Program-made: the position numbers and the translations under genes
DNA from: a virus
DNA: 64,000 nt
Strand: one strand, 5' to 3'
Virus record (IMG/VR): IMGVR_UViG_3300044991_001301
The notes under the pieces: model-generated
What the model was told of the DNA's origin: nothing
Seen by the model: the letters and a program-made list of their open reading frames with translations, nothing else
Databases searched by the model: none
Shown: positions 17,668 through 48,366 of the stretch, piece after piece
Layout: each line of letters begins with the position of its first letter
Numbering within the stretch: the first letter of the stretch is position 1

Positions 17668-20600
17668 TTATTTATTCCTAAAATACAATGCGTCGAATTT
17701 CGCTCTCAGCCACGGCCAATCATAGCTTAGCTTTAATTTCTCAAAATCACCATTAACTTCTTTGTAATACTCCACCGCGTGTTGAGCACCATCAATGCTA
17801 TATTGAGCAAAATCACCCATTCCAACTGTCAGCCAGAATTCAAGTCGTTCATTGCTGATATCAGAGGCGTCGTGGACTAACTTTAACGCTTCTCTAAACG
17901 CAGTTCTCCACGTGCTATATGCATCGGTATTGTATACTGCTGTGCCACTCGTAATTTTAACAACCTCGTGCTCGTCATCCATTGTAAAGTCAAGACCTGT
18001 GCCAGGATTAGCAAGTGTCAATTTTTTGTTATATGCAATCATAGCTTGGTGTCCATATACTAACCCATTCACGGGGTTTTTAGCATGAAATACATAATGC
18101 TTGGGTATTTGTAATCTGTCGGGTTGCCAATTCCAATCAAACTTTACCGCAACCTTTAACTTTGCGAAAACTGTAAACATCCAAGCCGTATTACTTGCTT
18201 CAGCAGCAGCGTGATATGCTGCTACTCGACCATTAACGCCGTCAACTCGGGTAATACGATTTGGCAACCCGTGCGTCACCTTAAGCAAATGCTCGTAGTT
18301 CTGTTCCGCACCCAATTCACCGTTACTTAAGAAAACAATGTCCATTGGGGAGGATTTGGTGAGTTTGCTATTAGTGATAATGTATGGATAATCGTATAAC
18401 TCTCTTTTAACATACTTGGCTGCTTCTTTAGGAACAATAATGCGAGTTCCACCCTCACTAGTAATCACGATGTTCTTTGTTTCGCTACTCCACAAACTCA
18501 TTGGTTCAGTGTCAATGACTGTAATGGCAGTGTTGTCATCAGTAGTGAATACTGCATAGGGAAAGTTAAACGGGGTGTTGATACTATCCACGTGAGTGTC
18601 ACTGGTAGTAATAATGATTGGAGCTGGCAACCGTTTGCTACGTTGACTTTGATTGTAATTAATCTTAACAAAATCTTCTAATACTGTCATATCATCACTC
18701 AACTCTCGTAATTTGTTAACATCAATTAAAAATGTATCTCCAAACTTTTGCTTGTCACTGGGGAATACGTGAAGTTGTTCTTTGGTAAAGGGATCGCATA
18801 TGTAAGTAAAGTCAAACCCTGTATAATCACAAATAGTGCTAACTACCCAAACATAATGTTCTGGTTTAACAGGCAAATTGGTCAACATAGTTCTAAATGT
18901 GTTGAGATAGCTGGTATCGTATTTTACAATCAAATTGCCGTAGCTGACATCAGCAAGTTCTTGATTGCCGTGGTCAATATACACTGTATCATACAATATG
19001 TTAGTAGCGGTTGCTCTGCGTTCTTTAACAAAATTCAAGTTAGACAAATGTTCTATGATTTTGATGTACTTGGTATCATTGGCAAATGTTTCCCGATTTA
19101 CCATAAAGGTTGTTCCCCAATGATTCCATTGAGTGCCGAACACGTGAACCATTTTCATTTGCCACGGGCTAGGGTAAAAGTCAAATTCAAAAGTGTTGTA
19201 ATCTAATTCACTATTAATCACCCAAAACAAAGTGGTTTCTGATTTGATAATGCACCTGTTGATAGTGTCAACCCAATTGTTCAAGTAGCGTGTTTTTTGT
19301 AGTTGTGGGTAGCGGAGTTTTAACTCATCGTACCGGTGTGCGCTTTCTGCATTTCTTTTATCTATAAAGAACATACTTAGATTGCTGTCTACCTTCACAC
19401 TAGCACCTTCAACATAATTATATGCTTGGTGCCCTAATATATACATTGGGCCGTTGACATAGTAAGTTTGTGTATTGATACTGTTTTCATTGCCAAACAC
19501 ATTGATGTGTCTGAAGTTTTCTTCTGTGGGTTTCCAACTAAAATCAAATTTAGAATAATTCAAGTCAGGATTGATAGCCCAGAACACCTCATCAGAATGT
19601 TCGGCAATCAACTCTTCCAATGTTGTTTTAATTTTATAACGGTTGACTACTGCTTTCTTTGTTTCGTTAGTTCTAGCCATCAACACAACTTCATTGGCAT
19701 CAGGGACAGAATAGCGTGGCCCATTGTCAGCCCATTGATATATTTGTGGCGGACTGTGTGGGTTAGGTCTCCATGTAAAGTCAAATGTTTCTAAGTCATC
19801 ATTGTTATTGATAGCCCAAAACTGAACCTGTGCTTTAGGGGTAGCAACAGGACTATCCATATACTTAAACTCTGTGGCACCCTCACAATGATACTCAATG
19901 GATGGCTCGATAGTCATATCATTCCACTTGTTACCAAACACATAGATATAGGCGGGGCTATTGGGGTCTGGACGCCAACTATAATCAAACCATTCAATTG
20001 GGATCAATCGTTTCCAATTGTGATCTGTAGCAGTTGACTTTACTACACCAACGATATCTGTTATGTATTTTCTATCACTCGCTCCGGGTGTGTGATACTC
20101 TACAGTTGGTTCGCGTACGCCGTCGTGCCATTGATTACCAAACACATAGATATAGGGACTAGAGTGGGGATTGGGTCTCCAACTATAATCAAAGTTGTCT
20201 ACTGGTATCAGCGTTTTCCAGTGTTTGTGCGTATTAGCAACGGTAGCGACAACATCTGTGACAAAGCTTTTTTCTCTAGCACCTTCTACAATGTACTCCA
20301 CCGTAGGTTCTGTCATAGCATCGTGCCATTGATTACCAAACACATAGATATAAGCGGGGCTATTGGGGTCTGGTCGCCAACTAAAGTCAAAAGACTCAAC
20401 AGGAATTAATATCTTCCAATTTTGCGGTACAGGTAGTGTTTTAGCCACCCTGTCTAGCATATATTTTCGTTCGGTGGCAGAAGGGCAATGGTATTCAATC
20501 GTGGGTTCTTTCTCCGCACCATTAGACTGATTGCCCCATACATAGATGTATGCGGGTTCACGTGGGTCTGGTCTCCAACTAAAGTCAAATGATGACTTGT

Positions 20601-23600
20601 CAACTGGTATTAATAGTTGGTACCTATCCCATTGGGGGACTACGTCAGCCTCACCCACGTATTTGCGCTCAGTCGCCCCATCACAATGAAATTCAAGTGT
20701 CGATTGTAATTCGCCGGCGACATATTTATTGCCCCATACATAGATGTATGCTGGTTCACGTGGGTCTGGTCTCCAACTAAAGTCAAAGTTTTCAACTGCT
20801 TGTAAAATCTTCCAACTTGCGTGTATGGGTGTCACGCTAACATCGTTACCCATGTATTTAAACTCTGTGGCTCCATCACAGTAATATTCCACTGTGGGTT
20901 TCAATTCAGCACTGATATGTTTGTTACCCCATACATAGATATATGCGGGTTCTCTGGGATCCGGTCTCCAACTAAAGTCAAAGTTTTCAACTGCTTGTAC
21001 AATCTTCCATTTGTCAAATTGGGGAACTACTTCCACAGTGTCGTCCATGTATTTGCGCTCAACAGCTCCTTCGCAATGATATTCAAGTGTAGGTATTAGC
21101 TCCCCGGATACCCACTTGTTTCCCCAGACATAGATATATGCTGGTTCACGTGGGTCGGGTCGCCAAGTAAGGTCAAACTTAGTTTTGTCTATAGGCTGAA
21201 TTTCATTCCAACGATTAGTTTCTGGCAAGACGGCAACCTCATCACCCATATATTTTCGTTCTGTGGCATCGTCGCAATGATATTCAAGGGTAGGCTTCAA
21301 GTCGGCGGCGATCCACTTGTTACCCCAGACATAGATATATGAGGGTTCACGAGGATCAGGTCTCCAACTAAAGTCAAAGTTTTCAACTGCTTGTACAATC
21401 TTCCATTTGTCAAATTGTGGCAAGACTTCAACATTGTTGTCCATGTACTTGCGCTCAACAGCTCCTTCGCAATGATATTCCACAGTGGGTTTCAACTCAG
21501 CACTAATGTGTTTATTACCCCATACATAGATATATGCGGGTTCTCTGGGATCAGGACGCCATGTCAAGTCAAACTTAGTTTTATCAACTGGCTGAATTTC
21601 ATTCCAACGATTAGTTTCTGGCAAGACAGCAACCTCATCACCCATATATTTTCGTTCGGTTGCCCCTTCACAGTGATATTCCACTGTGGGTTTCAACTCA
21701 GCACTAATGTGTTTATTACCCCATACATAGATATATGCGGGTTCTCTGGGATCAGGACGCCATGTCAAGTCAAACTTAGTTTTGTCTACTGATTGTATTT
21801 CTTCCCATTTGGCTTGCTCAGGTAGCACCTCAACATCATCTCCCATATATTTAAGTTCAGTCGCACCATCGCAATGATATTCTATTGTTGCTTTTAACTC
21901 AGCACTGATATGTTTATTTCCCCAGACATAAATGTATAGTGGTTCACGTGGGTCGGGTCGCCAAGTAAGGTCAAACTTAGTTTTGTCTATAGGCTGTATT
22001 TCTTTCCATCGATTAAGTTCAGGTAGCACCTCAACGTCATCTCCCATATATTTGCGTTCGGTAGCTCCCTCACAGTGATATTCTATAGTGGGTTTCAACT
22101 CAGCACTGATATGTTTGTTACCCCAGACATAGATATATGCGGGTTCTCTGGGATCAGGTCGCCAAGTAAGGTCAAACTTAGTTTTGTCTATGGCCTGGAC
22201 TTCTCTCCAGCGATTATATTCTGGCAATACCATAACCCCTTCGCCCATATATTTTCGCGCAATGGCTCCTTCACAGTGATATTCAAGAGTTGGCTTCAAG
22301 TCGCCGGCTATCCACTTGTTGCCCCATACATAGATATAAGCTGGTTCGCGTGGATCTGGTCGCCAAGTAAGGTCAAACTTAGTCTTGTCTATGGGTTGAA
22401 TTTCTTCCCATCTATCTTGATCAGGCAATACCACAACATCATTACCCATATATTTAAGTTCAGTCGCCCCTTCACAGTGATATTCTATAGTGGGTTTCAA
22501 CTCAGCACTGATGTGCTTGTTGCCCCATACATAGATATATGCGGGTTCTCTGGGATCAGGACGCCATGTCAAGTCAAACTTAGTTTTGTCTATAGATTGT
22601 ATTTCTTTCCAGTGATTGAGTTCAGGTAGCACCTCAACATCATTACCCATATATTTAAGTTCAGTCGCACCATCGCAATGATATTCTATTGTTGCTTTTA
22701 ACTCAGCACTAATGTGTTTATTACCCCATACATAGATATATGCGGGTTCTCTGGGATCAGGACGCCATGTCAAATCAAAGGTATGTCTATCGATAGATTG
22801 TATTTCTTTCCAGTGATTGAGTTCAGGTAGCACCTCAACATCATTACCCATATATTTAAGTTCAGTCGCCCCTTCACAGTGATATTCTATTGTTGCTTTT
22901 AACTCAGCACTGATATGTTTGTTACCCCAGACATAAATGTATAGTGGTTCACGTGGGTCGGGTCGCCATGTCAAATCAAAGGTATGTCTATCGATAGATT
23001 GAACCTCATTCCAGCGATTGAGTTCAGGTAGCACCTCAACATCATTACCCATATATTTAAGTTCAGTCGCCCCTTCACAGTGATATTCTATCGTTGACTT
23101 TAACTCAGCACTGATATGTTTGTTGCCCCACACATAGATATAGGGAGGTTCATGTAAGTTGGGATCAGGTCTCCAACTAAAATCAAATTTACTTTTATCA
23201 ACTGACTGTACTTCTGTCCATCTATCCCATTCTGGTTCTAACGCAACAATGTCCATGTATTTGTATTCTGTTGCTCCCGGAACTGTATATTCTAATGTTG
23301 GTTTAACTTCAGCCGGATCATATTTGTTTCCCCATACATAGATATATGGTGGTTCACGTGGGTCGGGTCGCCAAGTAAGGTCAAACTTAGTCTTGTCTAC
23401 CGGTTGAACCTCATTCCAGCGATTAAGTTCAGGTAGCACATCAACATTGCCCATATATTTTCGTTCGGTAGCTCCCTCACAGTGATATTCAAGGGTCGGC
23501 TTCAAGTCGCCGGCTATCCACTTGTTGCCCCATACATAGATATATGCTGGTTCACGTGGGTCGGGTCGCCAACTAAAATCAAATGCGTTTTTATTCACCA

Positions 23601-24351
23601 CCTCGATCCCTACCCATTTATCCCATTGGGGCAGTACTTCAACTAACTCAGGCATATGCTTGATTTCAGTGGCATTGGGAGTGTGATACTCTAGTGTAGA
23701 TTGTAGCGTGCCATCAATAAACTTGTTACCCCATACATATATGTAGGGCGGGTCGAGGGGGCTAGGTCTCCAAGTCATATCAAACTTGTCTTTGTCTACT
23801 GTGTGTTCCGTCTCTACCCAATTAGCTGTGTTTGACAGTAATTCCACCGTATCAGCCATATACTTGATAGCTGTAGCACCAGGGGTGTGATATTCTACAC
23901 AGGCTTTTAGGTGCACCGGGAAGAACTTACAACCCCAGGTATAGATATATGGAGGATCGGATGGATCTGGGTGCCAACTAAAATCAAATTTAGTCTCGTC
24001 AACTAAATCTAACAACACCCAACAATCATTCTTTTGATTTTTCCGTTTTATTGGATCAACGTCATTTCGATAGATAATAATTTCGCTAGGTTCAGATGGG
24101 CATAACCAAGTGCCGCTGTCTTTTTGGTGGAGACTGGGCCACACATTATTATGTTCTTCTGCCCAAACATCTTCATCGGGTAAGAATTCAAAATCAAAAT
24201 CCCAATCAAAGTTACGATAATCACAATGTTCGTTGATTATCCAAAAATGCGCAGTGGTACATTGACCTCTAGCGTCATCTATTGACGCAGCAAATTTTTC
24301 TCTTGGGTGAACATTGGGTTTTTTGTTACAGTAAAATACATCGAGGAGCAT
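17668..24351 (-). CDS. Giant tandem-repeat protein with degenerate glycosyltransferase-like domains
   Basis: 2227 aa with about 22 copies of FD(L/F)(T/S)WRPDPREPAYIYVWGNK...EYHCEGATE.KYM. The C-terminal domain (DIVFLSNGE...RVDGVNG..AAYHAAA...WRTAFREALKL) aligns by eye with 45170..46120. Confidence 0.75.
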   Translation of the reverse strand: MLLDVFYCNKKPNVHPREKFAASIDDARGQCTTAHFWIINEHCDYRNFDWDFDFEFLPDEDVWAEEHNNVWPSLHQKDSGTWLCPSEPSEIIIYRNDVDPIKRKNQKNDCWVLLDLVDETKFDFSWHPDPSDPPYIYTWGCKFFPVHLKACVEYHTPGATAIKYMADTVELLSNTANWVETEHTVDKDKFDMTWRPSPLDPPYIYVWGNKFIDGTLQSTLEYHTPNATEIKHMPELVEVLPQWDKWVGIEVVNKNAFDFSWRPDPREPAYIYVWGNKWIAGDLKPTLEYHCEGATERKYMGNVDVLPELNRWNEVQPVDKTKFDLTWRPDPREPPYIYVWGNKYDPAEVKPTLEYTVPGATEYKYMDIVALEPEWDRWTEVQSVDKSKFDFSWRPDPNLHEPPYIYVWGNKHISAELKSTIEYHCEGATELKYMGNDVEVLPELNRWNEVQSIDRHTFDLTWRPDPREPLYIYVWGNKHISAELKATIEYHCEGATELKYMGNDVEVLPELNHWKEIQSIDRHTFDLTWRPDPREPAYIYVWGNKHISAELKATIEYHCDGATELKYMGNDVEVLPELNHWKEIQSIDKTKFDLTWRPDPREPAYIYVWGNKHISAELKPTIEYHCEGATELKYMGNDVVVLPDQDRWEEIQPIDKTKFDLTWRPDPREPAYIYVWGNKWIAGDLKPTLEYHCEGAIARKYMGEGVMVLPEYNRWREVQAIDKTKFDLTWRPDPREPAYIYVWGNKHISAELKPTIEYHCEGATERKYMGDDVEVLPELNRWKEIQPIDKTKFDLTWRPDPREPLYIYVWGNKHISAELKATIEYHCDGATELKYMGDDVEVLPEQAKWEEIQSVDKTKFDLTWRPDPREPAYIYVWGNKHISAELKPTVEYHCEGATERKYMGDEVAVLPETNRWNEIQPVDKTKFDLTWRPDPREPAYIYVWGNKHISAELKPTVEYHCEGAVERKYMDNNVEVLPQFDKWKIVQAVENFDFSWRPDPREPSYIYVWGNKWIAADLKPTLEYHCDDATERKYMGDEVAVLPETNRWNEIQPIDKTKFDLTWRPDPREPAYIYVWGNKWVSGELIPTLEYHCEGAVERKYMDDTVEVVPQFDKWKIVQAVENFDFSWRPDPREPAYIYVWGNKHISAELKPTVEYYCDGATEFKYMGNDVSVTPIHASWKILQAVENFDFSWRPDPREPAYIYVWGNKYVAGELQSTLEFHCDGATERKYVGEADVVPQWDRYQLLIPVDKSSFDFSWRPDPREPAYIYVWGNQSNGAEKEPTIEYHCPSATERKYMLDRVAKTLPVPQNWKILIPVESFDFSWRPDPNSPAYIYVFGNQWHDAMTEPTVEYIVEGAREKSFVTDVVATVANTHKHWKTLIPVDNFDYSWRPNPHSSPYIYVFGNQWHDGVREPTVEYHTPGASDRKYITDIVGVVKSTATDHNWKRLIPIEWFDYSWRPDPNSPAYIYVFGNKWNDMTIEPSIEYHCEGATEFKYMDSPVATPKAQVQFWAINNNDDLETFDFTWRPNPHSPPQIYQWADNGPRYSVPDANEVVLMARTNETKKAVVNRYKIKTTLEELIAEHSDEVFWAINPDLNYSKFDFSWKPTEENFRHINVFGNENSINTQTYYVNGPMYILGHQAYNYVEGASVKVDSNLSMFFIDKRNAESAHRYDELKLRYPQLQKTRYLNNWVDTINRCIIKSETTLFWVINSELDYNTFEFDFYPSPWQMKMVHVFGTQWNHWGTTFMVNRETFANDTKYIKIIEHLSNLNFVKERRATATNILYDTVYIDHGNQELADVSYGNLIVKYDTSYLNTFRTMLTNLPVKPEHYVWVVSTICDYTGFDFTYICDPFTKEQLHVFPSDKQKFGDTFLIDVNKLRELSDDMTVLEDFVKINYNQSQRSKRLPAPIIITTSDTHVDSINTPFNFPYAVFTTDDNTAITVIDTEPMSLWSSETKNIVITSEGGTRIIVPKEAAKYVKRELYDYPYIITNSKLTKSSPMDIVFLSNGELGAEQNYEHLLKVTHGLPNRITRVDGVNGRVAAYHAAAEASNTAWMFTVFAKLKVAVKFDWNWQPDRLQIPKHYVFHAKNPVNGLVYGHQAMIAYNKKLTLANPGTGLDFTMDDEHEVVKITSGTAVYNTDAYSTWRTAFREALKLVHDASDISNERLEFWLTVGMGDFAQYSIDGAQHAVEYYKEVNGDFEKLKLSYDWPWLRAKFDALYFRNK
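19730..23990 (-). repeat. Coding tandem repeat, about 201-bp (67-aa) unit, about 22 copies
   Basis: ATTACCCATATATTTAAGTTCAGTCGC recurs at about 22441, 22642, 22843 and 23044 (201-bp period). Central copies are near-identical in DNA and outer copies are diverged. Confidence 0.95.
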
Positions 24352-24358: not shown

Positions 24359-25834
24359 TTATGACAAAACTTTAACCCCATACAGTTTTTTAAACCTATC
24401 AGCATCTTCTCGGTTGTTAACCATTGGCTCACCGCGAACATTTAAGCTGGTATTCAACAGCATAGGACATCCCGTCAGCACGAACCATTTCTCTAATAAT
24501 TCCCTAATGCCAGAACCATCTTTGGGGACAGTTTGCACTCTGCTAGTACCATCTTTATGAATGATGGCGGGGAACAACTTAGGATGTGCGCAGTCACTTA
24601 TAACCTGCATATAGTGACTGTTGTTCCAGTTTCTAGGCATATTAAAATATTGGTGAACATATTCTTCTAGTATCACCGGGGCAAATGGTCTAAATCGCTG
24701 TCTGCGTTTAATCTCATTTACCCGGTCTTTGATTTCATCCCCTCTAGGATCGGCTAATAAACTACGATTGCCTAATGCTCTTGGCCCAAACTCGGCTCTG
24801 CCATTGGCAACACCTACTATCTTATCAGTCAGTAGTGCATCTAATATGCCATTTACCGGGTAATCACCGGGAATGTTATGGCCAAGATAAGCATCCGTCC
24901 ACTTAACCTGTTTACCGTAACCTAAACACGCGGCACCCAAACTGTTACCAGCGTCTCCGGGGTTAGGCATAATCCAAATATGTTCATAAAAGTCGCCGAG
25001 ACTTCTATTGGCCAAACAATTTAATGCCACACCTCCACCATATACTAGATTTCTACTCCTACCCAGTACTCTAGCTTTAGCCATAACAAAGCGTATCATT
25101 CTTTCTACTAGATGTTGACTAGTACTAGCTATATCCATATGGTTGGCATTAGGTAAGAAATCTAAGCCAGCACCTATATGTAGATTTTTTTTGAAACTTA
25201 AGATGTCAGTGGACGATAGTAACTCTTTATTCATCTCGGTAAGATACTTGGGTGTACCGTATGCTGCCATACCCATCAATATGTATTCTTCATCCAGCGG
25301 TCTTAGACCAACTCGTTCAGTCATCGCTGAATAGAATAGCCCAATGCTGTCTGGATAGCGTTTACTCCATAGTTTTTTATACTTAGCGACACCGTTCTCA
25401 TACCAGGCATCCCATATGGTTATCGTGTCAAACTCGCCGATAGCATCAATCACTACCACTGTAGCATCTTGAAACACGCTTGTTTGAAAGCCGGCGGCGG
25501 CGTGACATAGGTGATGTCCGTGCGTATGAATTTTAGGAGAGCCCATTTGAGAATAGCTGTCACCTAATAGCTTATCCCATGTTGGCCAAGTAAAGCCCTC
25601 ACCACTACGTAGTTGACGCAGTGACTTAAGCCAGGGCCGTTCATAGTAATGATATGACAGTTGGTCAGAGTTTGTAAATGTCAATGCGTCTACTAATAGT
25701 TCTTCACAGATATCTTTATCGTGTTTTTTCTTACTATAGCGTTCACTGTGTCCGGCAAATAGAATATTCCCGGAACTATCTACCACACTTAGTGCGGCAT
25801 CGTGAAACCCGGCTGATATACCTATATAGTTCAC
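24359..25834 (-). CDS. O-carbamoyltransferase (NodU/CmcH/TobZ family)
   Basis: GISAGFHDAA, ERYSKKKHD, HHLCHAAA, DAIGE, GGVALNC, PGDAG, EFGPRALGNRS, FRPFAP and LNTSLN. Confidence 0.95.
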   Translation of the reverse strand: MNYIGISAGFHDAALSVVDSSGNILFAGHSERYSKKKHDKDICEELLVDALTFTNSDQLSYHYYERPWLKSLRQLRSGEGFTWPTWDKLLGDSYSQMGSPKIHTHGHHLCHAAAGFQTSVFQDATVVVIDAIGEFDTITIWDAWYENGVAKYKKLWSKRYPDSIGLFYSAMTERVGLRPLDEEYILMGMAAYGTPKYLTEMNKELLSSTDILSFKKNLHIGAGLDFLPNANHMDIASTSQHLVERMIRFVMAKARVLGRSRNLVYGGGVALNCLANRSLGDFYEHIWIMPNPGDAGNSLGAACLGYGKQVKWTDAYLGHNIPGDYPVNGILDALLTDKIVGVANGRAEFGPRALGNRSLLADPRGDEIKDRVNEIKRRQRFRPFAPVILEEYVHQYFNMPRNWNNSHYMQVISDCAHPKLFPAIIHKDGTSRVQTVPKDGSGIRELLEKWFVLTGCPMLLNTSLNVRGEPMVNNREDADRFKKLYGVKVLS

Positions 25835-25929
25835 CGGTAGATAAAAGGATCGCGTTTACGGAGTTCTTTGATACGTTTTCGATATTTATATTCTCTTAGT
25901 AGATATCTAAACCAGTTAACTATAAACAT
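25831..25929 (-). CDS. 32-aa microprotein coupled to the carbamoyltransferase (DPFIY motif)
   Basis: MFIVNWFRYLLREYKYRKRIKELRKRDPFIYR*. Its TGA overlaps the GTG start of the carbamoyltransferase (GTGA). Too short for the ORF track. Confidence 0.7.
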   Translation of the reverse strand: MFIVNWFRYLLREYKYRKRIKELRKRDPFIYR

Positions 25930-39027: not shown

Positions 39028-39028
39028 A

Positions 39029-39991: not shown

Positions 39992-41280
39992 GCATATACC
40001 TCTTTAAGTTCTGGAACAACATCTACCAACTTCTCATTTCTAAATTCATCTAGCTCATCATTGAACTTTTTAAACTCTAGAATGCCACCTTTATTTTCAT
40101 ATGATATCGCATTTTTTCCTGCGTACTCAAAATGCCCACTTTTTAGTGCTTGCTCAATAACTTTAAACCCATCTGATATCTCTCGATGGTAAGAATATTT
40201 TTTAATATATTCTTGATATAATGCTATCAAGCGTGTTTTGACAAAATCTGGCAGTATCATCACATTGGCATACCATGGATTAGTTGCTAGGTTAAATCTA
40301 GGGCTTGACTTGTCGTCTATCAGTCCTTCTGCGAGTAAGTTATCAAAAAATTTAGGGAAACTAAACACGTTCCAACTACTAATAGTAGGTGTGATTTGAA
40401 ACTGAGCGTGTGGAACTTGTTCTTTAAGCGTTTTAATATTCTTTACTACACGCTGCCAATCAGTACCCTTGCGAATCACTTCTGCTACTTGCCCTTCAGC
40501 ATCTAAGCTAGCCCATATTTTAAGTTGCGGGAACTTACTCCAGTAACCAATCAAGTCTTTATCTTTGTATTTCAACGAACTAAAATTAGTTGTATAGGTG
40601 AGTTCAACCTGATCGGTTAACCCATTCTCAATCCAATAGTCTAAGCATTCGTAATGTTCAGGGGTTATAATGATTTCGCCACCTGCAAAATAAACTTCTA
40701 ACACATCTTTTAAATATGGTTTCAACTTATTCATAAACCCCATTTCTGCTGTTGAGTTTATTACAATCTTTCGAGTTTTAAAATATTCTTCATAAACATC
40801 AACGCCACGTTCATCAACCATCTCTTGTGCCCACAGACTACTGCATCCTGGACCACAGCTACGGCACTTCATATTACACATATTACTAAAACGCAGGTCC
40901 ATGTATTTCATCTGAAATTCTGATAGAGTCCCGTCAGTGGCTGTATTTTTTGAAATCATATCTACATATTCAAGCCCTCTGCGTTTATTGTGACTTTCAC
41001 GCATTGTCCAAGTGCCCATGGTCTCTAAATCATAGCACCTCTTACACGCTTCAACGGGTTCATCATTAAGCATTGATGTACGCATTTTCTTGTAAGCTTC
41101 ACTATTCATCATTTGGATGATAGATTCGTCGTTCTTAATATCCGCGACTGGTAAATTACTATCAGCTACACAACAAGGCATTACCCTACCATCTGGCCAA
41201 GAGTGAAAATGCACCCAAGGCAAAACACAAAAGTGTTTGCCCTTTCTAACTAAGTTTTCTACTACGATTGGGTCTTGCAT
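39976..41280 (-). CDS. Radical SAM enzyme with N-terminal twitch/SPASM-like domain
   Basis: FCVLPW...PCC...CKRC, then SNMCNMKCRSC, FAGGE, YTTN and ASLD. Confidence 0.88.
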   Translation of the reverse strand: MQDPIVVENLVRKGKHFCVLPWVHFHSWPDGRVMPCCVADSNLPVADIKNDESIIQMMNSEAYKKMRTSMLNDEPVEACKRCYDLETMGTWTMRESHNKRRGLEYVDMISKNTATDGTLSEFQMKYMDLRFSNMCNMKCRSCGPGCSSLWAQEMVDERGVDVYEEYFKTRKIVINSTAEMGFMNKLKPYLKDVLEVYFAGGEIIITPEHYECLDYWIENGLTDQVELTYTTNFSSLKYKDKDLIGYWSKFPQLKIWASLDAEGQVAEVIRKGTDWQRVVKNIKTLKEQVPHAQFQITPTISSWNVFSFPKFFDNLLAEGLIDDKSSPRFNLATNPWYANVMILPDFVKTRLIALYQEYIKKYSYHREISDGFKVIEQALKSGHFEYAGKNAISYENKGGILEFKKFNDELDEFRNEKLVDVVPELKEVYAWAES

Positions 41281-41282: not shown

Positions 41283-42518
41283 TTACTCCGTTGCATCTTG
41301 TAACTTATTTAACTCGGGGAAGGTTTTCCAAAAACTTTCACCGCGTATTCTATCACCTGAACCTGTATGCATCATAAAGGTTTCTTTATTCGCAGCCCAA
41401 GTGTCGTCATCCTTTGCAAAGTTCACGGCGTCAGTTACTAAACGAGACAACGATGTGTGATCCCCTTCATTACTAGCTGCCCAAGCTAGCGCATTATTTG
41501 CTGCTGCAATTTTTAATTCTTTAGGTAAACTCTTACCGCTGTAATAACTAGGATGGACTGCTAGGTACAAGCTATGATACCAATCTTCTGCGCGGATAAT
41601 TCCTTTACTCTTTAAGTAAGTATAAAATTCTCCTATAGTTGAATAATTGAATATTGAAAATACTGTGTTCATTTGAAAAGACACATAGTCTAGCTCACGG
41701 AACTTTAATAGGTTGCTTTCAACTAACCCCCAATCAGTACCATGTCTCAACCATTCTGCACGTTCGCCATAATGATCTACACTGCAACTTAATTCAATTC
41801 GTTTAAAGTGTTTCCACATATCAAGCAGGTCGTAGTCTTTAAACTTGATGTTACTAGCATTGGTATTATATCGCAAGGTGATGTCAGTGCGGCCCTTGCG
41901 TATCATCTCATCTAGCATTATGTAATGCTCTTCCGTTAGGGTTGGCTCTCCCCCGGCAAAGTATGCCAAATCAATATGTTCAATTTGGTCTAATACTTCC
42001 CGCAACAAGTTACCCTTCTCATCGGCATGGATGACAATGGGATGTTTTGGGTCGTGATTGGCCCGCATTTCTGCTCCCCATTGACTAGAAAACTCTGAGC
42101 CGCACGTACGGCATTTGAAGTTGCAAATGTTGCTGAATCTAATATCAAAGTAATGCATTTTGAAATCAGGTACTGTCCCATCGGCTAATGTAGTGGGCAC
42201 AGTTGAATCAAAATGCTTACTAAAATGCTCTTTACTATAGTTTCTAAAACTATGCGGGCCGGCCTCTTCGTGCTTATAGCAAAAGTTACATATCTTGTTT
42301 GGCTTGTCGTTCAGCATATCCAACCGTAACTGTTTCATCTGTTCATTGTTAAATGCATCTTTAAGGCTAGTTTGTTTAGTATTACCAAACGGCACCGTAT
42401 AGTCATTGCTACAACAAGGATAGATGTCCCCTTTAGGAGTAACATTTAAGTGAATCCAAGGAAACATACAGAAATTTTTACTATCATTTAATAAATATTC
42501 TTTATTCAGCGGAGTCAT
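41283..42518 (-). CDS. Radical SAM enzyme with N-terminal twitch/SPASM-like domain
   Basis: FCMFPW...PCC...CNFC, SNICNFKCRTC, FAGGEP and YNTN. Confidence 0.88.
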   Translation of the reverse strand: MTPLNKEYLLNDSKNFCMFPWIHLNVTPKGDIYPCCSNDYTVPFGNTKQTSLKDAFNNEQMKQLRLDMLNDKPNKICNFCYKHEEAGPHSFRNYSKEHFSKHFDSTVPTTLADGTVPDFKMHYFDIRFSNICNFKCRTCGSEFSSQWGAEMRANHDPKHPIVIHADEKGNLLREVLDQIEHIDLAYFAGGEPTLTEEHYIMLDEMIRKGRTDITLRYNTNASNIKFKDYDLLDMWKHFKRIELSCSVDHYGERAEWLRHGTDWGLVESNLLKFRELDYVSFQMNTVFSIFNYSTIGEFYTYLKSKGIIRAEDWYHSLYLAVHPSYYSGKSLPKELKIAAANNALAWAASNEGDHTSLSRLVTDAVNFAKDDDTWAANKETFMMHTGSGDRIRGESFWKTFPELNKLQDATE

Positions 42519-43774
42519 ACAGTATCATCCATTAAGTCAGCAAGTTCGGGAAATGTTTTAACAAAACTCTCTCCACGAATATTATCACGCAGTATTGTGT
42601 TGGTTCTAAATTCTTCCTTATATTTTTCCCACGTATTTTCACTGGGTGCCATAGTCCAATCGATTATGCTGTTAACTGCGGTAAGCGACGGAGTATTAGC
42701 AGAGAATCCGCGTTCCCGCATTAGGTCTAATAGTGATAATAGTTTTAATCTGCCCTCATCTTTGTGATGCTGTGGTAAAACATTTGAAGTAAGGTATTCA
42801 GGACTAGACATATTATATATTGAAAAGTGAGCAGTGACCGGGTACAAGTCTTTATCAAATAGATATTGATAAAACTCTAGAAATGTCTTGTAATTATATA
42901 AACTTAGCACAGTATTCATTTGCAACCTGATGAATGGCGATTTTTTAGCCATTACGAAATTATATTCTATGTCGGCCCAATTGGTGCCATGGCGTATATA
43001 TTCCGCACGTTCGCCGTAATGATCTACGCTAGCATAAACTTGAATATGATGCTTGAACTTCTTCCAAAGACCCATCAAATCTTTATCTTTGAATTTTAGA
43101 TTGCTAAAATTCGTGTTATAGCGCAATGCTATGTCTGTGCGACCTTGCCTTATCATTTCTTCTAACATTATGTAATGTTCCTCTGTGATAAGCGGCTCAC
43201 CACCGGCAAAATAAGCGTCTTCCATATGGGGAATCTGATCTAAGACCTCTTGTAAAAATTCCTTTTTATTATTCTTTAAAATAATGCGGCGGCTGATATT
43301 GTTTTTTAGATTCTCTTGTTCCCATTGACTACTAAAATCGGGTCCGCAAGTCCTACATTTAAAATTACAAATATTACTGAATCTGATATCAAAGTATCTC
43401 ATCTTAAATTCAGTCAGGGACCCATCTTCCCGGGTAGGAGTAACAGCAGTATCAAAATAGTTACCGTATTGTTTGTTAGAGCTAGTTCGAAAACTTCCCA
43501 TATCCATGCTGTCATGCTTGTGACAGGTCGCGCATATTGGATTTTTAACATCACGCAACATATCAACACGCAGTTTCTTCATCTCAGTAGCATTGACAAT
43601 TTCCATCATGCTATCTTTGTTTGAATTGGCAATGACTTTATGATAACCAAACTCATCGATTGGTGTTTTTCCTATGCAACACGGCAGAACATCGCCAGTT
43701 GGACTGGTGTTGAAATGTACCCATGGCAGCATACAGAATGATTTGCTTTCTGTTAATAAATATTCTTTGTTCAT
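42515..43774 (-). CDS. Radical SAM enzyme with N-terminal twitch/SPASM-like domain
   Basis: FCMLPW...PCC...CATC, SNICNFKCRTC, FAGGEP and YNTN. Confidence 0.88.
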   Translation of the reverse strand: MNKEYLLTESKSFCMLPWVHFNTSPTGDVLPCCIGKTPIDEFGYHKVIANSNKDSMMEIVNATEMKKLRVDMLRDVKNPICATCHKHDSMDMGSFRTSSNKQYGNYFDTAVTPTREDGSLTEFKMRYFDIRFSNICNFKCRTCGPDFSSQWEQENLKNNISRRIILKNNKKEFLQEVLDQIPHMEDAYFAGGEPLITEEHYIMLEEMIRQGRTDIALRYNTNFSNLKFKDKDLMGLWKKFKHHIQVYASVDHYGERAEYIRHGTNWADIEYNFVMAKKSPFIRLQMNTVLSLYNYKTFLEFYQYLFDKDLYPVTAHFSIYNMSSPEYLTSNVLPQHHKDEGRLKLLSLLDLMRERGFSANTPSLTAVNSIIDWTMAPSENTWEKYKEEFRTNTILRDNIRGESFVKTFPELADLMDDTV

Positions 43775-45165
43775 AGTGGATTTAATCGGTTATCTGTCTG
43801 ACACATTCTATAGAAGTTTATATATTCAGGGAATATAGATACCATATCTGTGTCTCGCCGCTCATCCAATTCATTAAACCAATTGTAAAAATCGCGGCGT
43901 CCTTCTAGTAGTTTATCATCTGAATACACAGTTTCTGCCATGTAATCAACTACTCGCTTGAACTTTTCATATTCAACGGTAGTGAATTTATTACTAGCAG
44001 TATCATCAACATTCTCCAACATAAACTGTAGAGAATCATGCATATAGGGCATAAATTCTTCTTTGGGAAGAATGTTCATATCATACTGCAGTGGATCCCG
44101 TAAGTATGGAGTATCAAATCTAACACGATGACTCTTTATGTCGTCGTACCATCCATATTGATTACGCCATTCCAGCATCTTCACAAGCAGTTGCTTGAAG
44201 GTAGTTACACTGAAGATGTTGAAGGTAATCATAAATGTGATCGGACTATCTGTGCGTTGTAAGTATGTGTGAAAATTCTTTTCCCACAATTCCAAATCCA
44301 ATCCAGTACGAATATATTCGGCGCGCGGGCCCCATGTGTCTAAGCTGGTGAATAGTTTAAATGAGCGAATCTTTCCGTCATCACACAGTTGCTTAACACT
44401 ATCACTTAACTTTTCAACTAAACTGGTTTTAGTCCCTAGATTACTGTTAATATTCAACTCCAACCACGGCATAGGGTCAGCGGCAATCTTATCTAACAAC
44501 TGCCATGTGCTGCGGTGCATGGTTGGCTCACCGCCAGTAACTCGCATGATATTCAATGTCTTTCGTAATTCAGGCCACCATTCCCAGAATGCATCAACGT
44601 ATGGATTTTCTTCTTCACGTTGGTATAGTTTCATCCAATCAATGTCGCAACGATGATTCTTTACTGTAGTGACTGGGCCATTCTCTTTGATTTCATTATA
44701 GAATCGTGTGCTGTACTTTGGATGACAATATCCACACTTGAAATTACATTCATTACCAAAGTTAATTTCTAAGTATTCTGGATTTATGTTTTGATCCCAC
44801 GGACCCTTAACCGTCTGCTCATACCGTTCTTCAGTAAAAATACTAGCGTTACGAATATGACGGTCACTTATGTAATCTGGGCCCATTGCTTCAATGTTCC
44901 AGCAGTATTGACACCCCTTAGGTTTCTCACCAGCAAGCATTTCTTTACGTTCTAACTTCTTATGCATGGTGTTATGCAACGCAGATGGGTTGTCTTTCAA
45001 TTCACTTAGTGGAATCTTATGTGGCTGCGGGTGATAACAACTATGTGTCTCCCCTGTTTGTAAATACATAGTCACATGATGCCATTTAGCAAGACAGAAG
45101 GTAGGCCCTACTTCATTCTCGATTCGTATTTTAATATCTTTGATTCTTTTTTGTTCTGATGACAT
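43771..45165 (-). CDS. Radical SAM enzyme with N-terminal Cys/His-rich domain
   Basis: FCLAKW...HSCYHP...CQYCW, NECNFKCGYC, TGGEPT and NSNLG. Confidence 0.88.
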   Translation of the reverse strand: MSSEQKRIKDIKIRIENEVGPTFCLAKWHHVTMYLQTGETHSCYHPQPHKIPLSELKDNPSALHNTMHKKLERKEMLAGEKPKGCQYCWNIEAMGPDYISDRHIRNASIFTEERYEQTVKGPWDQNINPEYLEINFGNECNFKCGYCHPKYSTRFYNEIKENGPVTTVKNHRCDIDWMKLYQREEENPYVDAFWEWWPELRKTLNIMRVTGGEPTMHRSTWQLLDKIAADPMPWLELNINSNLGTKTSLVEKLSDSVKQLCDDGKIRSFKLFTSLDTWGPRAEYIRTGLDLELWEKNFHTYLQRTDSPITFMITFNIFSVTTFKQLLVKMLEWRNQYGWYDDIKSHRVRFDTPYLRDPLQYDMNILPKEEFMPYMHDSLQFMLENVDDTASNKFTTVEYEKFKRVVDYMAETVYSDDKLLEGRRDFYNWFNELDERRDTDMVSIFPEYINFYRMCQTDNRLNPL

Positions 45166-45169: not shown

Positions 45170-46120
45170 TTACCATCCCTCTATTTTTCTAATTACATCC
45201 ATTTCTGTTACTAATGGGCCTATATTGCGGAAGTCAGCTTTATAATGTCGCTTAAAGAATTTACTCTGTGAAAAAGTTAATGTACACATAGGTAAATCTA
45301 ATTTAGCTGCTAGTGATTCTCCCAATAAAGTTAATTCTTTTTCAGGGTCTAGACCTTTATGTTCTTCCCATAAAGCAGTGTAATTATCAAACCATTGAAC
45401 ATTTGCAGGATCCCACTCAGTCAACATGGTCATGTAAGTGCCCAGTCTTGCGCCATAGATAGCCCATAAGCCATTCTCAACATCAGCACCTACATTATGC
45501 CAGATGGTCAAATTGTTTAAATTTCTAGTTGCGACGGTTTCTTTAAATTGCTCTATGCTAGGCCTCGCACCTCTATCTAAACTCATCTTGACACCCTCTC
45601 GGAATCCTGCTCGCCAGGCTTGAAATGGAGTATAGTTAGGATACGTTGTTGAATAACAATCGTGCATTGCCCAATACAAATTGTCTTTGCCGTCCATACA
45701 AAAATCAGCAATGCGTGATACGTCACCATCAGTTTGATGTTCGTGAGTTTTCATATTGGCAACATATTCCTGTGTCCAGGACGACATACCACCGTTACCG
45801 TAGCGCAAACCGTTAATGCTGTTTATTGCTTTCCAACGAAATTGCGCTAGTTTAAAGGTAGGGTCTTTGTTGGTAAAGTCTAATTGTAAATTGAAGAAAC
45901 TTTCTTCAGGCATATTGTCACCGTCAATTAGAATAAATCGTTCAGTATCACTTGCAAGGCCCGCAGCTTTATGTGCGGCGTCACTACCTTTAACATTATC
46001 AACCCGTTTAGCCCAGGGTATCATATTCTTAATCTTAAGCCAAAATTCTTCCTTTTGGGGTTCATCATAGCTTAGATACACAACGTCTAAATCTGCTATA
46101 TCTACTATGTTTGAATTCAT
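45170..46120 (-). CDS. Putative GT-A fold glycosyltransferase
   Basis: DVVYLSYDEP, VKGSDAAHKAA, FILIDGDN (DxD), YGNGG and AWRAGFREGVKM. Confidence 0.6.
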   Translation of the reverse strand: MNSNIVDIADLDVVYLSYDEPQKEEFWLKIKNMIPWAKRVDNVKGSDAAHKAAGLASDTERFILIDGDNMPEESFFNLQLDFTNKDPTFKLAQFRWKAINSINGLRYGNGGMSSWTQEYVANMKTHEHQTDGDVSRIADFCMDGKDNLYWAMHDCYSTTYPNYTPFQAWRAGFREGVKMSLDRGARPSIEQFKETVATRNLNNLTIWHNVGADVENGLWAIYGARLGTYMTMLTEWDPANVQWFDNYTALWEEHKGLDPEKELTLLGESLAAKLDLPMCTLTFSQSKFFKRHYKADFRNIGPLVTEMDVIRKIEGW

Positions 46121-46471
46121 TTAGTTCCTAAGTTCATACGTGTTTAATTTCCATTTAATCGTATCCCCGACATAACCTGCACCAACTACAATGCTTATAT
46201 CTTCTGTCACGCACGATTGCCCGGTAATGGCATCTGGCATCAATTTAGTGACTACGACACATTCTGATAGATTTGATATTTTTCCATCAATGACTCTAAC
46301 ATCAGGTCTTCCCGCGGCATAGCTACTAGCATCGATAATGATGTAGTTTCCATCAAGTTTTTCACAAGTATAACAAATTACCTTGCCAGTGTCGCTATAA
46401 TATAAACGAAACTCAGGTGGGATAATCTTTGGAGCTTCCCATAAAATTATATAATCATCATCATCTTGCAT
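46121..46471 (-). CDS. Hypothetical protein
   Basis: 116-aa ORF coupled within the operon. Confidence 0.55.
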   Translation of the reverse strand: MQDDDDYIILWEAPKIIPPEFRLYYSDTGKVICYTCEKLDGNYIIIDASSYAAGRPDVRVIDGKISNLSECVVVTKLMPDAITGQSCVTEDISIVVGAGYVGDTIKWKLNTYELRN

Positions 46472-47264
46472 ATAAACTCTTACTTATTTTATCACAAAAA
46501 TTCTTCAATTGATAGTGAAATGGGTACAATTGTGGGTTAGTATTTACCCGTAAGGTGTGGGGCAGTATTTCATAAACAAACGTATCTGTCCAATCTGCGG
46601 TGGGCAAATCATTAATAAACTGTTTCATATGCACCATGCTCATTGCTGTAAAGTTAGGCAGTGTTGTTTTTTCTACGCCAACAATGTGACTGGCAATAGC
46701 ATATACCCAATCTGTGGTTGGTAGCTCATCTCTATTACATTTGAGAATAGCAATATATTGATTCCAGTTTTCAAATATATCCCTCACTACTTCAAAAAAC
46801 AAACGAGCAGTATCAGATTTCTTAAAATAGGTGATAGCGTTGTAGCAGTCCGGCAATGCATTGTCGTCAATAAATTTTCTGTATGCTCGCGAAGTAGAAA
46901 TGTCTTGTCTAAAGTTTCTAATGGTCGTGGATATCACAACATCACGCTGCTGTAGAGTGTGCCACCAATGGTCTATAGAGCTAGGTAGATACAAATCTGC
47001 TTCTAACTTAATAGTGTATTCATATGGACTAGCCTCATATACTTGCCAATCATTAGATAGCTTCCAATTGCTAGTAGGATCAATATCACCGTATGGTAGC
47101 TTAATAACCTGATCAAATGCTTTACATAGAGTAGTGTTGTCGCTAATAAGTGATACATTAGCAGATGGCATTTGAGCTTTAATGCTTTGTGCCAAGACCT
47201 CAGCACATTTAACATAGTCAACATCAGCGGTATTTTGAGCGAGGATTACAAATCCTTTAGTCAT
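46461..47264 (-). CDS. Putative nucleotide-diphospho-sugar transferase (GT8-like); ExD variant
   Basis: KGFVILAQN..DYVKCA..LAQSI and YEASPYEYTIKLEAD. Paralog of 47261..48064. Confidence 0.55.
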   Translation of the reverse strand: MTKGFVILAQNTADVDYVKCAEVLAQSIKAQMPSANVSLISDNTTLCKAFDQVIKLPYGDIDPTSNWKLSNDWQVYEASPYEYTIKLEADLYLPSSIDHWWHTLQQRDVVISTTIRNFRQDISTSRAYRKFIDDNALPDCYNAITYFKKSDTARLFFEVVRDIFENWNQYIAILKCNRDELPTTDWVYAIASHIVGVEKTTLPNFTAMSMVHMKQFINDLPTADWTDTFVYEILPHTLRVNTNPQLYPFHYQLKNFCDKISKSLYAR

Positions 47265-48064
47265 TTTATTAACTCTAAGAAGTTATCTTTTTGCATAACG
47301 TGAAAGTCCATATCTTTAATAGTCATATATTCTTTTCGGATCTTAGCACGTTGCCAATTATCAAACATCACAGTATATTCAGTATTAAATTCATCAGTAG
47401 AATTTGCATAGATTGAAGTGTTCTTGCCAATATGGGTTAAGTTCCATGGAATGATATCTTCTGCTTGCATTAAATGCCCATTAGCAATCCTAAGTGCTAA
47501 CGTTAACGCATAGTCATTACGATAGACCCCTCCTATAAAACTATGAATATTACCATAATGCTCATAGTTTTTCTGAACCATTTCCAAACACTCAAATATT
47601 TGCTTTGCTCTATTGGTTTTTCTAAAGGCTATCACAGTGGCCCATAGTGTTTTATAGCTGTATGCGCTTAATACTTCTTGCGCTGCGCCCACATTCATCA
47701 GAAAAGTAGTGGCATCGTGACAGCAAAAATCAATTGAAGTCTCAAATGTTTTTAACAGTTTAGATGAATTAACCATATAGTCGGTATCTAAGAGCAAGGT
47801 TTCATCATATGGACTAAGTTCATATGCTTGGTATCTGCCCTTATTAATCCAAATACTATAATCACGAATGTTGCCTTTATCCGGCTTAGTTATTATCACA
47901 TTATCAAATTGATAGTCAACTTGGTCTGGGATTGAACTTTCATCCGTGACTATGGTTACCGGCATTGATAAAAAATGATTTATACGTTTAGCTGTTGCTA
48001 CTGCCATTGTGTAATAGTTATACTTTGGCGAGTTAAAGGCAAACAAGATTGCACCTCTAGTCAT
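47261..48064 (-). CDS. Putative nucleotide-diphospho-sugar transferase (GT8-like)
   Basis: RYQAYELSPYDETLLLDTD (DxD), WATVIAF, YRNDYA and HVMQK. Confidence 0.6.
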   Translation of the reverse strand: MTRGAILFAFNSPKYNYYTMAVATAKRINHFLSMPVTIVTDESSIPDQVDYQFDNVIITKPDKGNIRDYSIWINKGRYQAYELSPYDETLLLDTDYMVNSSKLLKTFETSIDFCCHDATTFLMNVGAAQEVLSAYSYKTLWATVIAFRKTNRAKQIFECLEMVQKNYEHYGNIHSFIGGVYRNDYALTLALRIANGHLMQAEDIIPWNLTHIGKNTSIYANSTDEFNTEYTVMFDNWQRAKIRKEYMTIKDMDFHVMQKDNFLELIK

Positions 48065-48366
48065 CGCTTTCTCTCTAGTTCACTCCATTCATCATACCAT
48101 TCTTGCATGGTTTCATCGTAGATGGATTGTAATTTAGTTAAAAGGTCGCTGCGATTTACTTTAACTGGATTAGCGAATGTGTCTATGAGAATGATTGTAT
48201 CAGAGAGAGTGGCGTTTAAGAAATTGATTGTTTCTAAATTGACTTTCCAAAGACCACCTTGATCAGCAACAATAAGCTTGCTATCATATTTTTCTTTAAG
48301 GTAGGCTTTGGCTGAGCTATGATTGAATCTAGCTCGGGCATCACTAATTAATGTTTGTGTATCCAT
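48061..48366 (-). CDS. Hypothetical protein heading the modification island
   Basis: AAGGAG SD and CTAAATA (48384-48390) upstream. Confidence 0.6.
   Translation of the reverse strand: MDTQTLISDARARFNHSSAKAYLKEKYDSKLIVADQGGLWKVNLETINFLNATLSDTIILIDTFANPVKVNRSDLLTKLQSIYDETMQEWYDEWSELERKR

Follow-up and report, generated by a model that had tools for sequence, protein, structure and literature searches.

Positions 17668-48366 of a 64,000-nucleotide stretch of viral DNA (IMG/VR record IMGVR_UViG_3300044991_001301; the whole stretch is called the window below) hold a block of enzyme genes, hereafter the island, that is best read as a late, cytoplasmic pathway for building and editing a glycan on a protein made by the phage itself, probably its fibres or the serine/threonine (S/T)-rich protein ST317. 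We give this reading a probability of roughly 45%. The product would be a methylated, carbamoylated and possibly acylated glycan. Gene content and layout support a soluble pathway with a physical, and probably a transcriptional, link to the fibre genes. The island comprised 23 open reading frames (ORFs) of at least 100 aa, fewer than the about 27 genes of the original prediction but contiguous as predicted and mostly overlapping or abutting, 20 being encoded on the minus strand and the three at 34063-36518 on the plus strand. As nearly all genes of the window lie on the minus strand, "upstream" refers to higher coordinates. PHROGs matches to tail, baseplate and thymidylate synthase proteins were consistent with a large tailed phage, and 12-kb and 24-kb pieces of the window, used as DNA queries against cultured phages, returned no match.

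The island has two fixed ends and a middle in which cassettes are swapped. The near end consists of the fibre genes, two GT8-like glycosyltransferase (GT) genes, a GT-A gene, the N-terminal-twitch radical S-adenosylmethionine (SAM) genes (N_Twi_rSAM, or Twi) and a short radical SAM gene; the far end consists of a B12 radical SAM, an SGNH-like gene, a carbamoyltransferase and a giant repeat protein. In related loci the middle held GT-B paralogs, SGNH-like genes, a plus-strand C-methyl cassette and extra radical SAM genes, and in the window this variable middle had the lowest GC (0.34-0.36). The fibre block and the enzyme core of the near end are encoded as follows:

51425..63934, minus strand: giant virion structural protein of 4169 aa, 21% S+T (phrog_10938 "virion structural protein", E 1e-51; FG-GAP and CBM5/12 traces)
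50636..51256, minus strand: conserved 206-aa protein of the fibre block (phrog_11259, E 7e-68; 85-92% identity in related loci)
49379..50605, minus strand: fibre-like protein of 408 aa with a C-terminal Peptidase_G2-type intramolecular chaperone domain (PF11962, E 6e-6); its N-terminus matches phrog_14394 "virion structural protein"
48416..49369, minus strand: ST317, S/T/G-rich (29% S+T), by composition a candidate acceptor or fibre subunit
48061..48366, minus strand: h101, small conserved protein opening the enzyme core (conserved in 34 loci; homolog in the bacterial locus L117)
47261..48064, minus strand: GT8-like GT-A protein a, with a DTD motif (family profile A4 against glycogenin, E 2e-4)
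46461..47264, minus strand: GT8-like GT-A protein b, paralog of a (same family profile)
46121..46471, minus strand: h116, small protein conserved in related loci, with no family match
45170..46120, minus strand: GTA316, GT-A-fold protein always adjoining the first N_Twi_rSAM gene (AlphaFold2, Foldseek and VIA-align)
43771..45165, minus strand: N_Twi_rSAM paralog, 464 aa (NF033640, 314 bits; 34% identical to RsoM2USA gp349)
42515..43774, minus strand: N_Twi_rSAM paralog, 419 aa (NF033640, 354 bits); a gene-sized indel, not in the closest relative, L001
41283..42518, minus strand: N_Twi_rSAM paralog, 411 aa (NF033640, 364 bits)
39976..41280, minus strand: N_Twi_rSAM paralog, 434 aa (NF033640, 349 bits)
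39029..39991, minus strand: short radical SAM protein, 320 aa, closing the fixed core (PF04055; best PDB match MoaA, E 0.005)

By composition and by PHROGs and Pfam matches, S/T-rich structural genes lay directly upstream of the island, as had been proposed. ST317 had more than 4538 homologs, none functionally named; it matched nothing in Pfam, PHROGs or NCBIfam, and a PDB search with its profile was empty. The same three family databases gave nothing for h101 and h116.

Related loci comprised 51 IMG/VR loci anchored on a Twi gene and 80 anchored on ST317. The recurring order ran from the giant structural protein through the 206-aa protein, the Peptidase_G2 fibre protein, ST317, h101 and two GT8-like genes to h116, GTA316, two to five Twi genes and the short radical SAM gene. 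It was complete in 56 of the 58 ST317-anchored loci with enough downstream sequence and also occurred in 34 Twi-anchored loci. In the synteny survey proposed with the original prediction, synteny recurred in more than 100 related contigs. At the far end, the carbamoyltransferase stood directly before the giant gene in 45 of 53 loci, the pair usually being preceded by a DUF6071 protein and the B12 radical SAM. The closest relative (L001; 92-96% DNA identity) showed four gene-sized differences: a Twi gene and a DUF6071 gene each gained or lost, replacement of a GT-B gene by an SGNH-like one, and, in the relative but not in the window, insertion after h101 and before the first GT8-like gene (L001 1540-2232) of a 230-aa gene whose GIY-YIG-like motif suggests a homing endonuclease. 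Such gain, loss and replacement of cassettes between close phages fits selection for surface or antigenic variety.

The cassette also recurred outside the close phage group, independent origin not being assumed. The cultured Ralstonia phage RsoM2USA (MG752970.1) possessed a minimal version with two GT8-like genes, one intervening gene, GTA316 (40% identity to the window protein), Twi (34%) and a second GTA316-like gene, located just after gp355 (fibre-like), gp356 and gp361; gp356 and gp361 were detected in virions by mass spectrometry (PMC8504454). A distant phage lineage (L052/L053) carried the cassette as well. In a Bdellovibrionales metagenome-assembled genome (MAG; L117 9953-21271, JABGUH010000022.1), a chromosomal copy directly followed pheS/pheT in a neighbourhood including rimM, trmD, rnhB and pheST. 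It encoded an ST317-like protein (29% identity, E 5e-18), an h101-like protein, two GT8-like proteins, an intervening gene, GTA316 and two Twi proteins, with a further Twi gene, a 516-aa GTA316-like fusion and a short radical SAM gene nearby.

The transcriptional link rests on promoter-like motifs, two of which are listed as features:

50628..50635, minus strand: CATAAATA late-type motif before the fibre gene, conserved; probable promoter of a fibre and core operon
25883..25890, minus strand: exact TATAAATA before the carbamoyltransferase and giant-protein pair (motif search), the only exact copy in the island

T4-type late motifs had been predicted at 28940, 32069, 34024, 34049 and 48384. None of the five was an exact TATAAATA, which occurred five times in the window against 10 expected by chance; 28940, 34024 and 34049, together with 50628, carried NATAAATA variants and so stood in that form, but 32069 and 48384 were poorer matches. 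The exact copy at 25883 and the motif at 50628 had not been among the predicted sites. A AATAAATA motif lay at 34048-34055 ahead of the plus-strand cassette and at 28940 ahead of the B12 radical SAM. The shorter ATAAATA was enriched before genes: 10 of 51 had a copy no more than 60 nt upstream, the chance expectation being 0.016 per gene. Among related loci, 15 of 15 had it ahead of the fibre gene, and 0-1 of 30-51 had it ahead of any given core gene (h101 through the short radical SAM). Sigma-70-like promoters and intrinsic terminators occurred at chance level only, including the one minus-strand terminator-like site in the core, which lies inside the coding sequence of 37804-39063. Since ATAAATA is kept before the fibre gene, is not found before core genes, and terminators are not in excess, the enzyme core is most simply read as co-transcribed with the fibre genes from the fibre promoter. 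The divergent genes starting at 34016 (minus) and 34063 (plus) each begin with the identical 17-nt string ATAAATATTCAACAATG, which leaves just 7 nt between each ATG and its promoter-like motif (34024 and 34049), a spacing that may point to leaderless transcripts.

This arrangement bears on the target of the pathway. Working at the cytoplasmic face, phage enzymes could instead alter the host's lipid-linked intermediates of O-antigen, capsule or lipopolysaccharide (LPS), which host flippase and ligase would export, and such envelope remodelling could block superinfection or aid release. Envelope remodelling is how the GT8, UDP-glucose-dehydrogenase and radical-SAM cassettes of the hypervariable pelagimyophage fibre region have been interpreted in print (PMC7029224). 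As O-antigen glycosyltransferases are usually soluble or peripheral, missing transmembrane (TM) segments and missing phage export genes are compatible with it. A core without its own promoter motif in a late-type fibre operon would, however, be poorly timed for this purpose, with the cell near lysis, and the cassette travels with a fibre-like or ST317-like protein both in phages and in a bacterium. Family scans of the window proteins found no initiating phosphoglycosyl transferase, flippase, polymerase or ligase, and five relatives (92-100% complete) had no match to Bac_transf, Glycos_transf_4, Wzx or Wzy_C, the positive controls being detected; an initiating transferase was thus missing from all five near-complete relatives. 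Host envelope remodelling is considered unlikely on this evidence. The absence of flippase, Wzy and ABC exporter noted originally extends in this way from the window (for Wzx and Wzy_C) to the relatives, and the absence of obvious signal peptides was confirmed, no TM or signal-like segment being found in any island protein.

All three GT-A-like domains of the original prediction were recovered. The profile of the GT8-like family (two 267-aa proteins) aligned 104 N-terminal positions with glycogenin (GT8), at E 2e-4, with D95 of the DxD motif invariant and PF01501 silent even at E 5; the nearest named atlas clusters to protein a were Nucleotid_trans/GT8 (0.95-0.96). The AlphaFold2 model of GTA316 (316 aa; predicted local distance difference test score, pLDDT, 86) contained a GT-A domain, and all 50 listed VIA-align matches were glycosyltransferases or nucleotidyltransferases (Z 8.9-6.5), taken here as a single GT-A-like class of folds. 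Foldseek returned PcManGT (3e-4) and PBCV-1 A64R (9e-4), and the fold matches also included Mimivirus R655. A conserved D66-G67-D68 motif was present, D68 being invariant. A PDB sequence search with the GTA316 profile was empty, and the GT-A-like proteins had no Pfam, PHROGs or NCBIfam match. GTA316 is predicted to have a GT-A-like fold, with which transferase and nucleotidyltransferase activity would both be consistent.

The four N_Twi_rSAM proteins matched NF033640 (cut-off 170 bits) over their full length and all carried CN(F/M)KC..C, with the N-terminal C17, C36, C77 and C80 invariant. The family comprised 4428 clusters at 50% identity (E <=1e-30) and is named only, no description of its reaction or substrate being found in the literature searched. 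Compared with the family at large, the window members stand in tandem arrays tied to GT-A genes behind fibre genes. Some homologs were fusions of 800-1200 aa with two or three full copies (P0361-P0366, P0392, P0398). A SPASM Pfam match lay at residues 14-85 of an N_Twi_rSAM protein, and the best solved match of the Twi profile, a weak one, was viperin (E 4e-4). Viperin and MoaA are radical SAM enzymes acting on nucleoside triphosphates, and these matches hint weakly at nucleotide-linked substrates for the Twi and short radical SAM proteins. With the following far-end gene, the predicted set of one B12 radical SAM and five other radical SAM proteins was complete, the five others having an intact CxxxCxxC:

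26671..28920, minus strand: B12-binding radical SAM protein, 749 aa (B12-binding and radical SAM domains at 41.8 and 54.5 bits, above cut-off)

These enzymes could also be directed at protein, as in peptides synthesised by the ribosome and modified after translation (RiPPs): the twitch and B12 radical SAM enzymes would modify the fibre, ST317 or the 21-repeat giant protein by methylation, epimerisation or cross-linking, and the transferases would add sugars on top. Radical SAM enzymes with SPASM and twitch domains are mostly peptide maturases. The best NCBIfam matches of the B12 enzyme were RiPP C-methyltransferases, all subfamily models being far below their cut-offs, and the giant protein, whose 21 repeats are almost identical and keep W, Y, G and N positions invariant, always occurs with the island. 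Bacterial Twi arrays, moreover, mostly lack GT neighbours. Conversely, no RiPP recognition element (RRE)/PqqD-like domain, leader peptidase or small precursor was found; comparison of every small ORF (22-75 codons) in the 16-52 kb region with 116 related loci brought up nothing but shadow ORFs of genuine genes. In their cores, the Twi and short radical SAM proteins were nearer to viperin and MoaA than to peptide maturases, and the minimal RsoM2USA core consists of three or four GT-A proteins and one Twi protein. Protein-directed radical chemistry is quite unlikely in this light.

Bacterial Twi arrays reached eight genes, mainly in Bdellovibrionota and Flavobacteriales MAGs, and were often accompanied by a short radical SAM, a carbamoyltransferase or a B12 radical SAM; the short radical SAM accompanied Twi genes in 15 of 79 bacterial loci. 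A Bacteriovoracaceae MAG (UBA6144; L122 6055-18051) had a row of about eight adjacent N_Twi_rSAM-like matches (25-37% identity) close to obg and lacked any neighbouring transferase of the phage families. The bacterial context was considered as a guide to the substrate and set aside as too mixed (housekeeping genes, GT2, a pilin-like protein, a multicopper oxidase and an integrase).

The middle of the island and the rest of its far end, the giant repeat gene excepted, encode the following proteins:

37804..39063 (probable start 39027), minus strand: GT-B-fold transferase, "GT10-like" paralog (AlphaFold2 model and fold matches)
36502..37704, minus strand: GT-B paralog (by paralogy); an SGNH-like gene takes its place in the closest relative
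34063..36518, plus strand: cassette of an epimerase/reductase of the short-chain dehydrogenase/reductase (SDR) type, a nucleoside diphosphate (NDP)-hexose C-methyltransferase and a 116-aa helical protein, a branched-sugar module (Pfam)
34063..34968, plus strand: SDR epimerase of this cassette (family models)
34961..36175, plus strand: NDP-hexose C-methyltransferase of this cassette (Methyltransf_13, 23 and 14, all above cut-off)
32895..34016, minus strand: GT-B paralog (by paralogy); the real start is probably the ATG at 34016, giving 374 aa
32083..32892, minus strand: 269-aa protein, called SGNH-like solely from a G-C-S block-I-like motif
31345..32055, minus strand: DUF6071/SGNH-like protein (weak family match), not in the closest relative
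28946..31348, minus strand: NDP-sugar 6-dehydrogenase (residues 1-400) fused to a GT-B paralog (446-776) (Pfam, paralogy)
25920..26663, minus strand: DUF6071/GDSL-like protein with a G-D-S block I (weak family match and motif)
24359..25834, minus strand: NodU/CmcH-type O-carbamoyltransferase (both Pfam domains, E 2e-48 and 4e-32; phrog_1601, E 6e-88)

The four "GT10-like" units (the C-terminal half of 28946, 32895, 36502 and 37804) were indeed paralogous, and structural searching, which had been suggested as a check on both transferase groups, gave a GT-B fold for an AlphaFold2 model here (pLDDT 90) as it gave a GT-A fold for GTA316 above. An E...(S/T)-E-K motif, which we take to resemble the FEN..TEK motif of GT10, was invariant in all four. 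In VIA-align, the model matched the T4 glucosyltransferases BGT (Z 10.8) and AGT (10.6) together with Helicobacter pylori FucT (10.4) and FUT9 (10.3), which are tied; GT4 enzymes scored level with GT10 and T4 glucosyltransferases, and four GT10 structures were within the top 21 matches (Z 10.4-9.0). The paralogs had no Pfam family at E <=0.01 and no PHROGs or NCBIfam match, and PDB searches with a single sequence and with a profile were empty. At least 343 homologs were found, none functionally named and none in cultured phages. The GT-B fold of the predicted GT10-like proteins is well modelled, but their membership of GT10, which no Pfam or PDB sequence match backs, is a lead. GT10 fucosyltransferases resemble them in fold and motif.

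The same matches raise DNA hypermodification, in which the GT-B proteins would glycosylate hydroxymethyl-pyrimidines like the T4 alpha- and beta-glucosyltransferases before carbamoylation and radical editing. Although BGT and AGT headed the VIA-align matches, they were tied with fucosyltransferases and many other enzymes. Against DNA as a target, the only ThyA-family gene of the window was a canonical thymidylate synthase (353 bits; PCH; FNIAS with Asn), with a dihydrofolate reductase gene two genes downstream, and each of the five near-complete relatives possessed exactly one ThyA-family gene. No Tet/JBP match was detected in these relatives, in a search whose control was silent too. DNA glycosylation is hardly credible on these grounds, in line with the original prediction, which had also argued against DNA.

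Sugar supply and tailoring were supported by family models. The NDP-sugar dehydrogenase had N-terminal and central domains above Pfam cut-offs and a Cys 250, presumably the catalytic cysteine, in a GACHPRD stretch. The TIGR03026 score of 140 bits fell short of the 189.8-bit cut-off, and the Pfam and NCBIfam scans listed no UDP-binding domain at the C-terminus; an NDP-sugar dehydrogenase domain is confirmed, but not the UDP-glucose substrate first given. Its fusion to a GT-B unit suggests that a uronic acid is made and transferred on the spot. The C-methyltransferase met the TylC3/NovU-type domain set (Zn-binding Methyltransf_13, a SAM methyltransferase domain and Methyltransf_14), so that it and the epimerase agreed with their predicted functions; the plus-strand C-methyl cassette occurred in 6-8 of 52 loci. 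The predicted O-carbamoyltransferase was secure, Carbam_trans_N and Carbam_trans_C scoring 112 and 165 bits against cut-offs of 24 and 27. The three predicted SGNH proteins were weaker calls: two had DUF6071 matches below the cut-off of 27 bits (24.8 and 24.6 bits; Lipase_GDSL_2, E 0.0045), and the third was placed by motif only. Outside the island, 6157-9136 (minus strand) encoded a 4,6-dehydratase-like SDR, a DegT/DnrJ aminotransferase and a 327-aa radical SAM protein paralogous to 39029-39991. The logic of this module recalls DesIV, DesI and DesII of desosamine synthesis.

The presence together of a C-methyltransferase, a carbamoyltransferase, a DegT aminotransferase, radical SAM enzymes and SGNH proteins recalls deoxysugar natural-product tailoring. 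The pathway could on that basis yield a free glycoconjugate or an aminoglycoside- or nucleoside-like small molecule off the virion, for example one used against competitors or as a signal, and the acceptor, not being proven, leaves room for it. Seven or eight transferase-fold proteins are many for such a product, though, no exporter or resistance gene was seen among the window proteins, and the coupling to fibre genes is tight across lineages. This alternative is decidedly improbable.

A glycan built and edited on phage-made protein would be produced in the following way. Supply would come from the NDP-sugar 6-dehydrogenase fused to a transferase, from the SDR and C-methyltransferase, which would give a branched sugar, and from the further module at 6157-9136 with its dehydratase-like SDR, DegT aminotransferase and radical SAM protein. 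Three GT-A-fold and four GT-B-fold proteins would carry out transfer. Tailoring would involve the NodU-type O-carbamoyltransferase, the SGNH-like proteins as esterases or acyltransferases, the B12 radical SAM (methylation type), the four N-terminal-twitch radical SAM enzymes and the short one. Homology supports these supply, transfer and tailoring steps. Hydrogen abstraction and the acceptor are conjectural: the radical SAM enzymes may abstract hydrogen from a sugar, either nucleotide-linked or already transferred, and so dehydrate, epimerise or oxidise it, and the glycan may end on a co-produced protein, the likeliest acceptors being the S/T-rich fibre proteins encoded immediately upstream, above all the ST317 family. 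Exchange of the middle cassettes would make the glycan differ among close phages.

Several points weigh against this reading. The virion-protein acceptor is deduced, and the analogous pelagimyophage region has been read as modifying the host O-chain (PMC7029224). Most synteny counts come from one phage lineage and hence are not independent. Support for the promoters is at the level of motifs, those at 34024 and 34049 sitting 7 nt from an ATG. Since 77 of 79 bacterial Twi loci lack any of these GT families, the radical SAM chemistry is not strictly GT-dependent. The reading also assigns no role to the giant repeat protein. Of the cytoplasmic virion-glycan pathway originally proposed, the soluble character, the mix of sugar-nucleotide, transferase and tailoring enzymes, the physical and probable transcriptional link to the fibres and the lack of phage-encoded carrier or export steps all stood.

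A more far-reaching version, possible yet speculative, takes the fixed core (ST317-h101-GT8-GT8-h116-GTA316-N_Twi_rSAM) as a self-contained system that would glycosylate ST317 as its dedicated acceptor and then rewrite the attached sugars by a novel radical chemistry, shared by several jumbo-phage lineages and predatory Bdellovibrionota. N_Twi_rSAM would then be a large new class of carbohydrate-editing enzymes, and the cassettes would diversify fibre glycans for host range or evasion.

The gene at the fixed far end of the island encodes the remaining large protein:

17668..24351, minus strand: giant protein of 2227 aa (repeats and a GTA316-like domain)

Residues 122-1522 form 21 tandem repeats of 65-69 aa (67 aa), near-identical and with invariant W, Y, G and N positions, followed by a non-repeat region. 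The protein had been described as a degenerate GT-like repeat protein, which was rejected: hhalign gave the repeats a probability of 0.2% against the GT-A family, and only residues 1994-2161, which resemble GTA316 (45170), are GT-like. A PDB search with the repeat profile was empty. A cultured-phage search with the non-repeat C-terminal 728 residues returned only the RsoM2USA GT-A-like gene. The protein was found in 63 loci (841-3084 aa), always co-located with the island.

Further features were observed at and beyond this end. A tmRNA-/tRNA-like T-arm and acceptor fragment ending in CCA (17609-17696, minus strand; 15.6-24.7 bits, sub-threshold in Rfam) starts within the giant gene, some 30 nt before its 3' end, and extends past its stop into the gap; it could be a relic or an attachment-type site. 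A tmRNA gene at 16261-16616 (minus strand), between porin and M48 genes, scored 93 bits with Rfam beta_tmRNA (cut-off 84) and 91.5 bits with tmRNA_permuted (cut-off 47), and ARAGORN reported no tRNA or tmRNA. The porin, of Gram-negative type (15262-16140, minus strand; Porin_4, E 2e-19; signal-like N-terminus), follows the giant gene in many relatives. At 12343-14845 (minus strand), a MoxR-type AAA ATPase and a DUF2201 metallopeptidase/VWA-like protein form a pair kept at 60-84% identity across relatives.

If the glycan is indeed borne on the fibres, radical-edited phage sugar coats would be a widespread and overlooked layer of host recognition, and they could help abundant aquatic jumbo phages evade defences. 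The minimal core in cultured RsoM2USA makes the question directly testable. Whatever its target, the island couples sugar transferases to a named, little-studied radical SAM family and so provides a genetic context for a substrate search.

Pelagimyophages and cyanomyophages possess the closest known counterpart, a hypervariable region for host recognition (Zaragoza-Solas et al. 2020, PMC7029224), in which GTs (GT8 commonest), UDP-glucose 6-dehydrogenase and radical-SAM cassettes lie amid tail-fibre genes. Both belong to T4-like aquatic myoviruses and mix fibre, GT and radical SAM genes, and in both close relatives differ cassette by cassette. For aquatic T4-like phages, the gene content of the fibre region, with its GT, LPS-type and radical-SAM cassettes, was in this sense already known; that paper is confined to gene content and proposes host O-chain modification (PMC7029224). 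Absent from it are the fixed core and fixed far end, the assignment to N_Twi_rSAM, the giant repeat protein and the bacterial counterpart, and the two-ended architecture, the coupling of GT-A to N_Twi_rSAM genes, the giant repeat protein and the bacterial counterpart with its ST317-like gene were not described in the literature searched.

Likeness to the noviose and desosamine pathways is one of logic, judged by enzyme families only, and no aglycone pathway is present here. Noviose synthesis employs the C-methyltransferase NovU and the carbamoyltransferase NovN, and desosamine synthesis DesIV, DesI and the radical SAM enzyme DesII. Virus-encoded virion glycosylation, for its part, is established for PBCV-1 Vp54 (A64R) and Mimivirus fibrils. 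It is also established for the capsid and tail tube of mycobacteriophages (Freeman et al. 2023, PMC10527164). Glycans have been shown on the virions of all three, whereas the acceptor is deduced here. To our knowledge, none of the three possesses radical SAM arrays, a carbamoyltransferase or a B12 radical SAM. The island is like these systems in relying on the virus's own soluble transferases and sugar-nucleotide enzymes and no lipid carrier.

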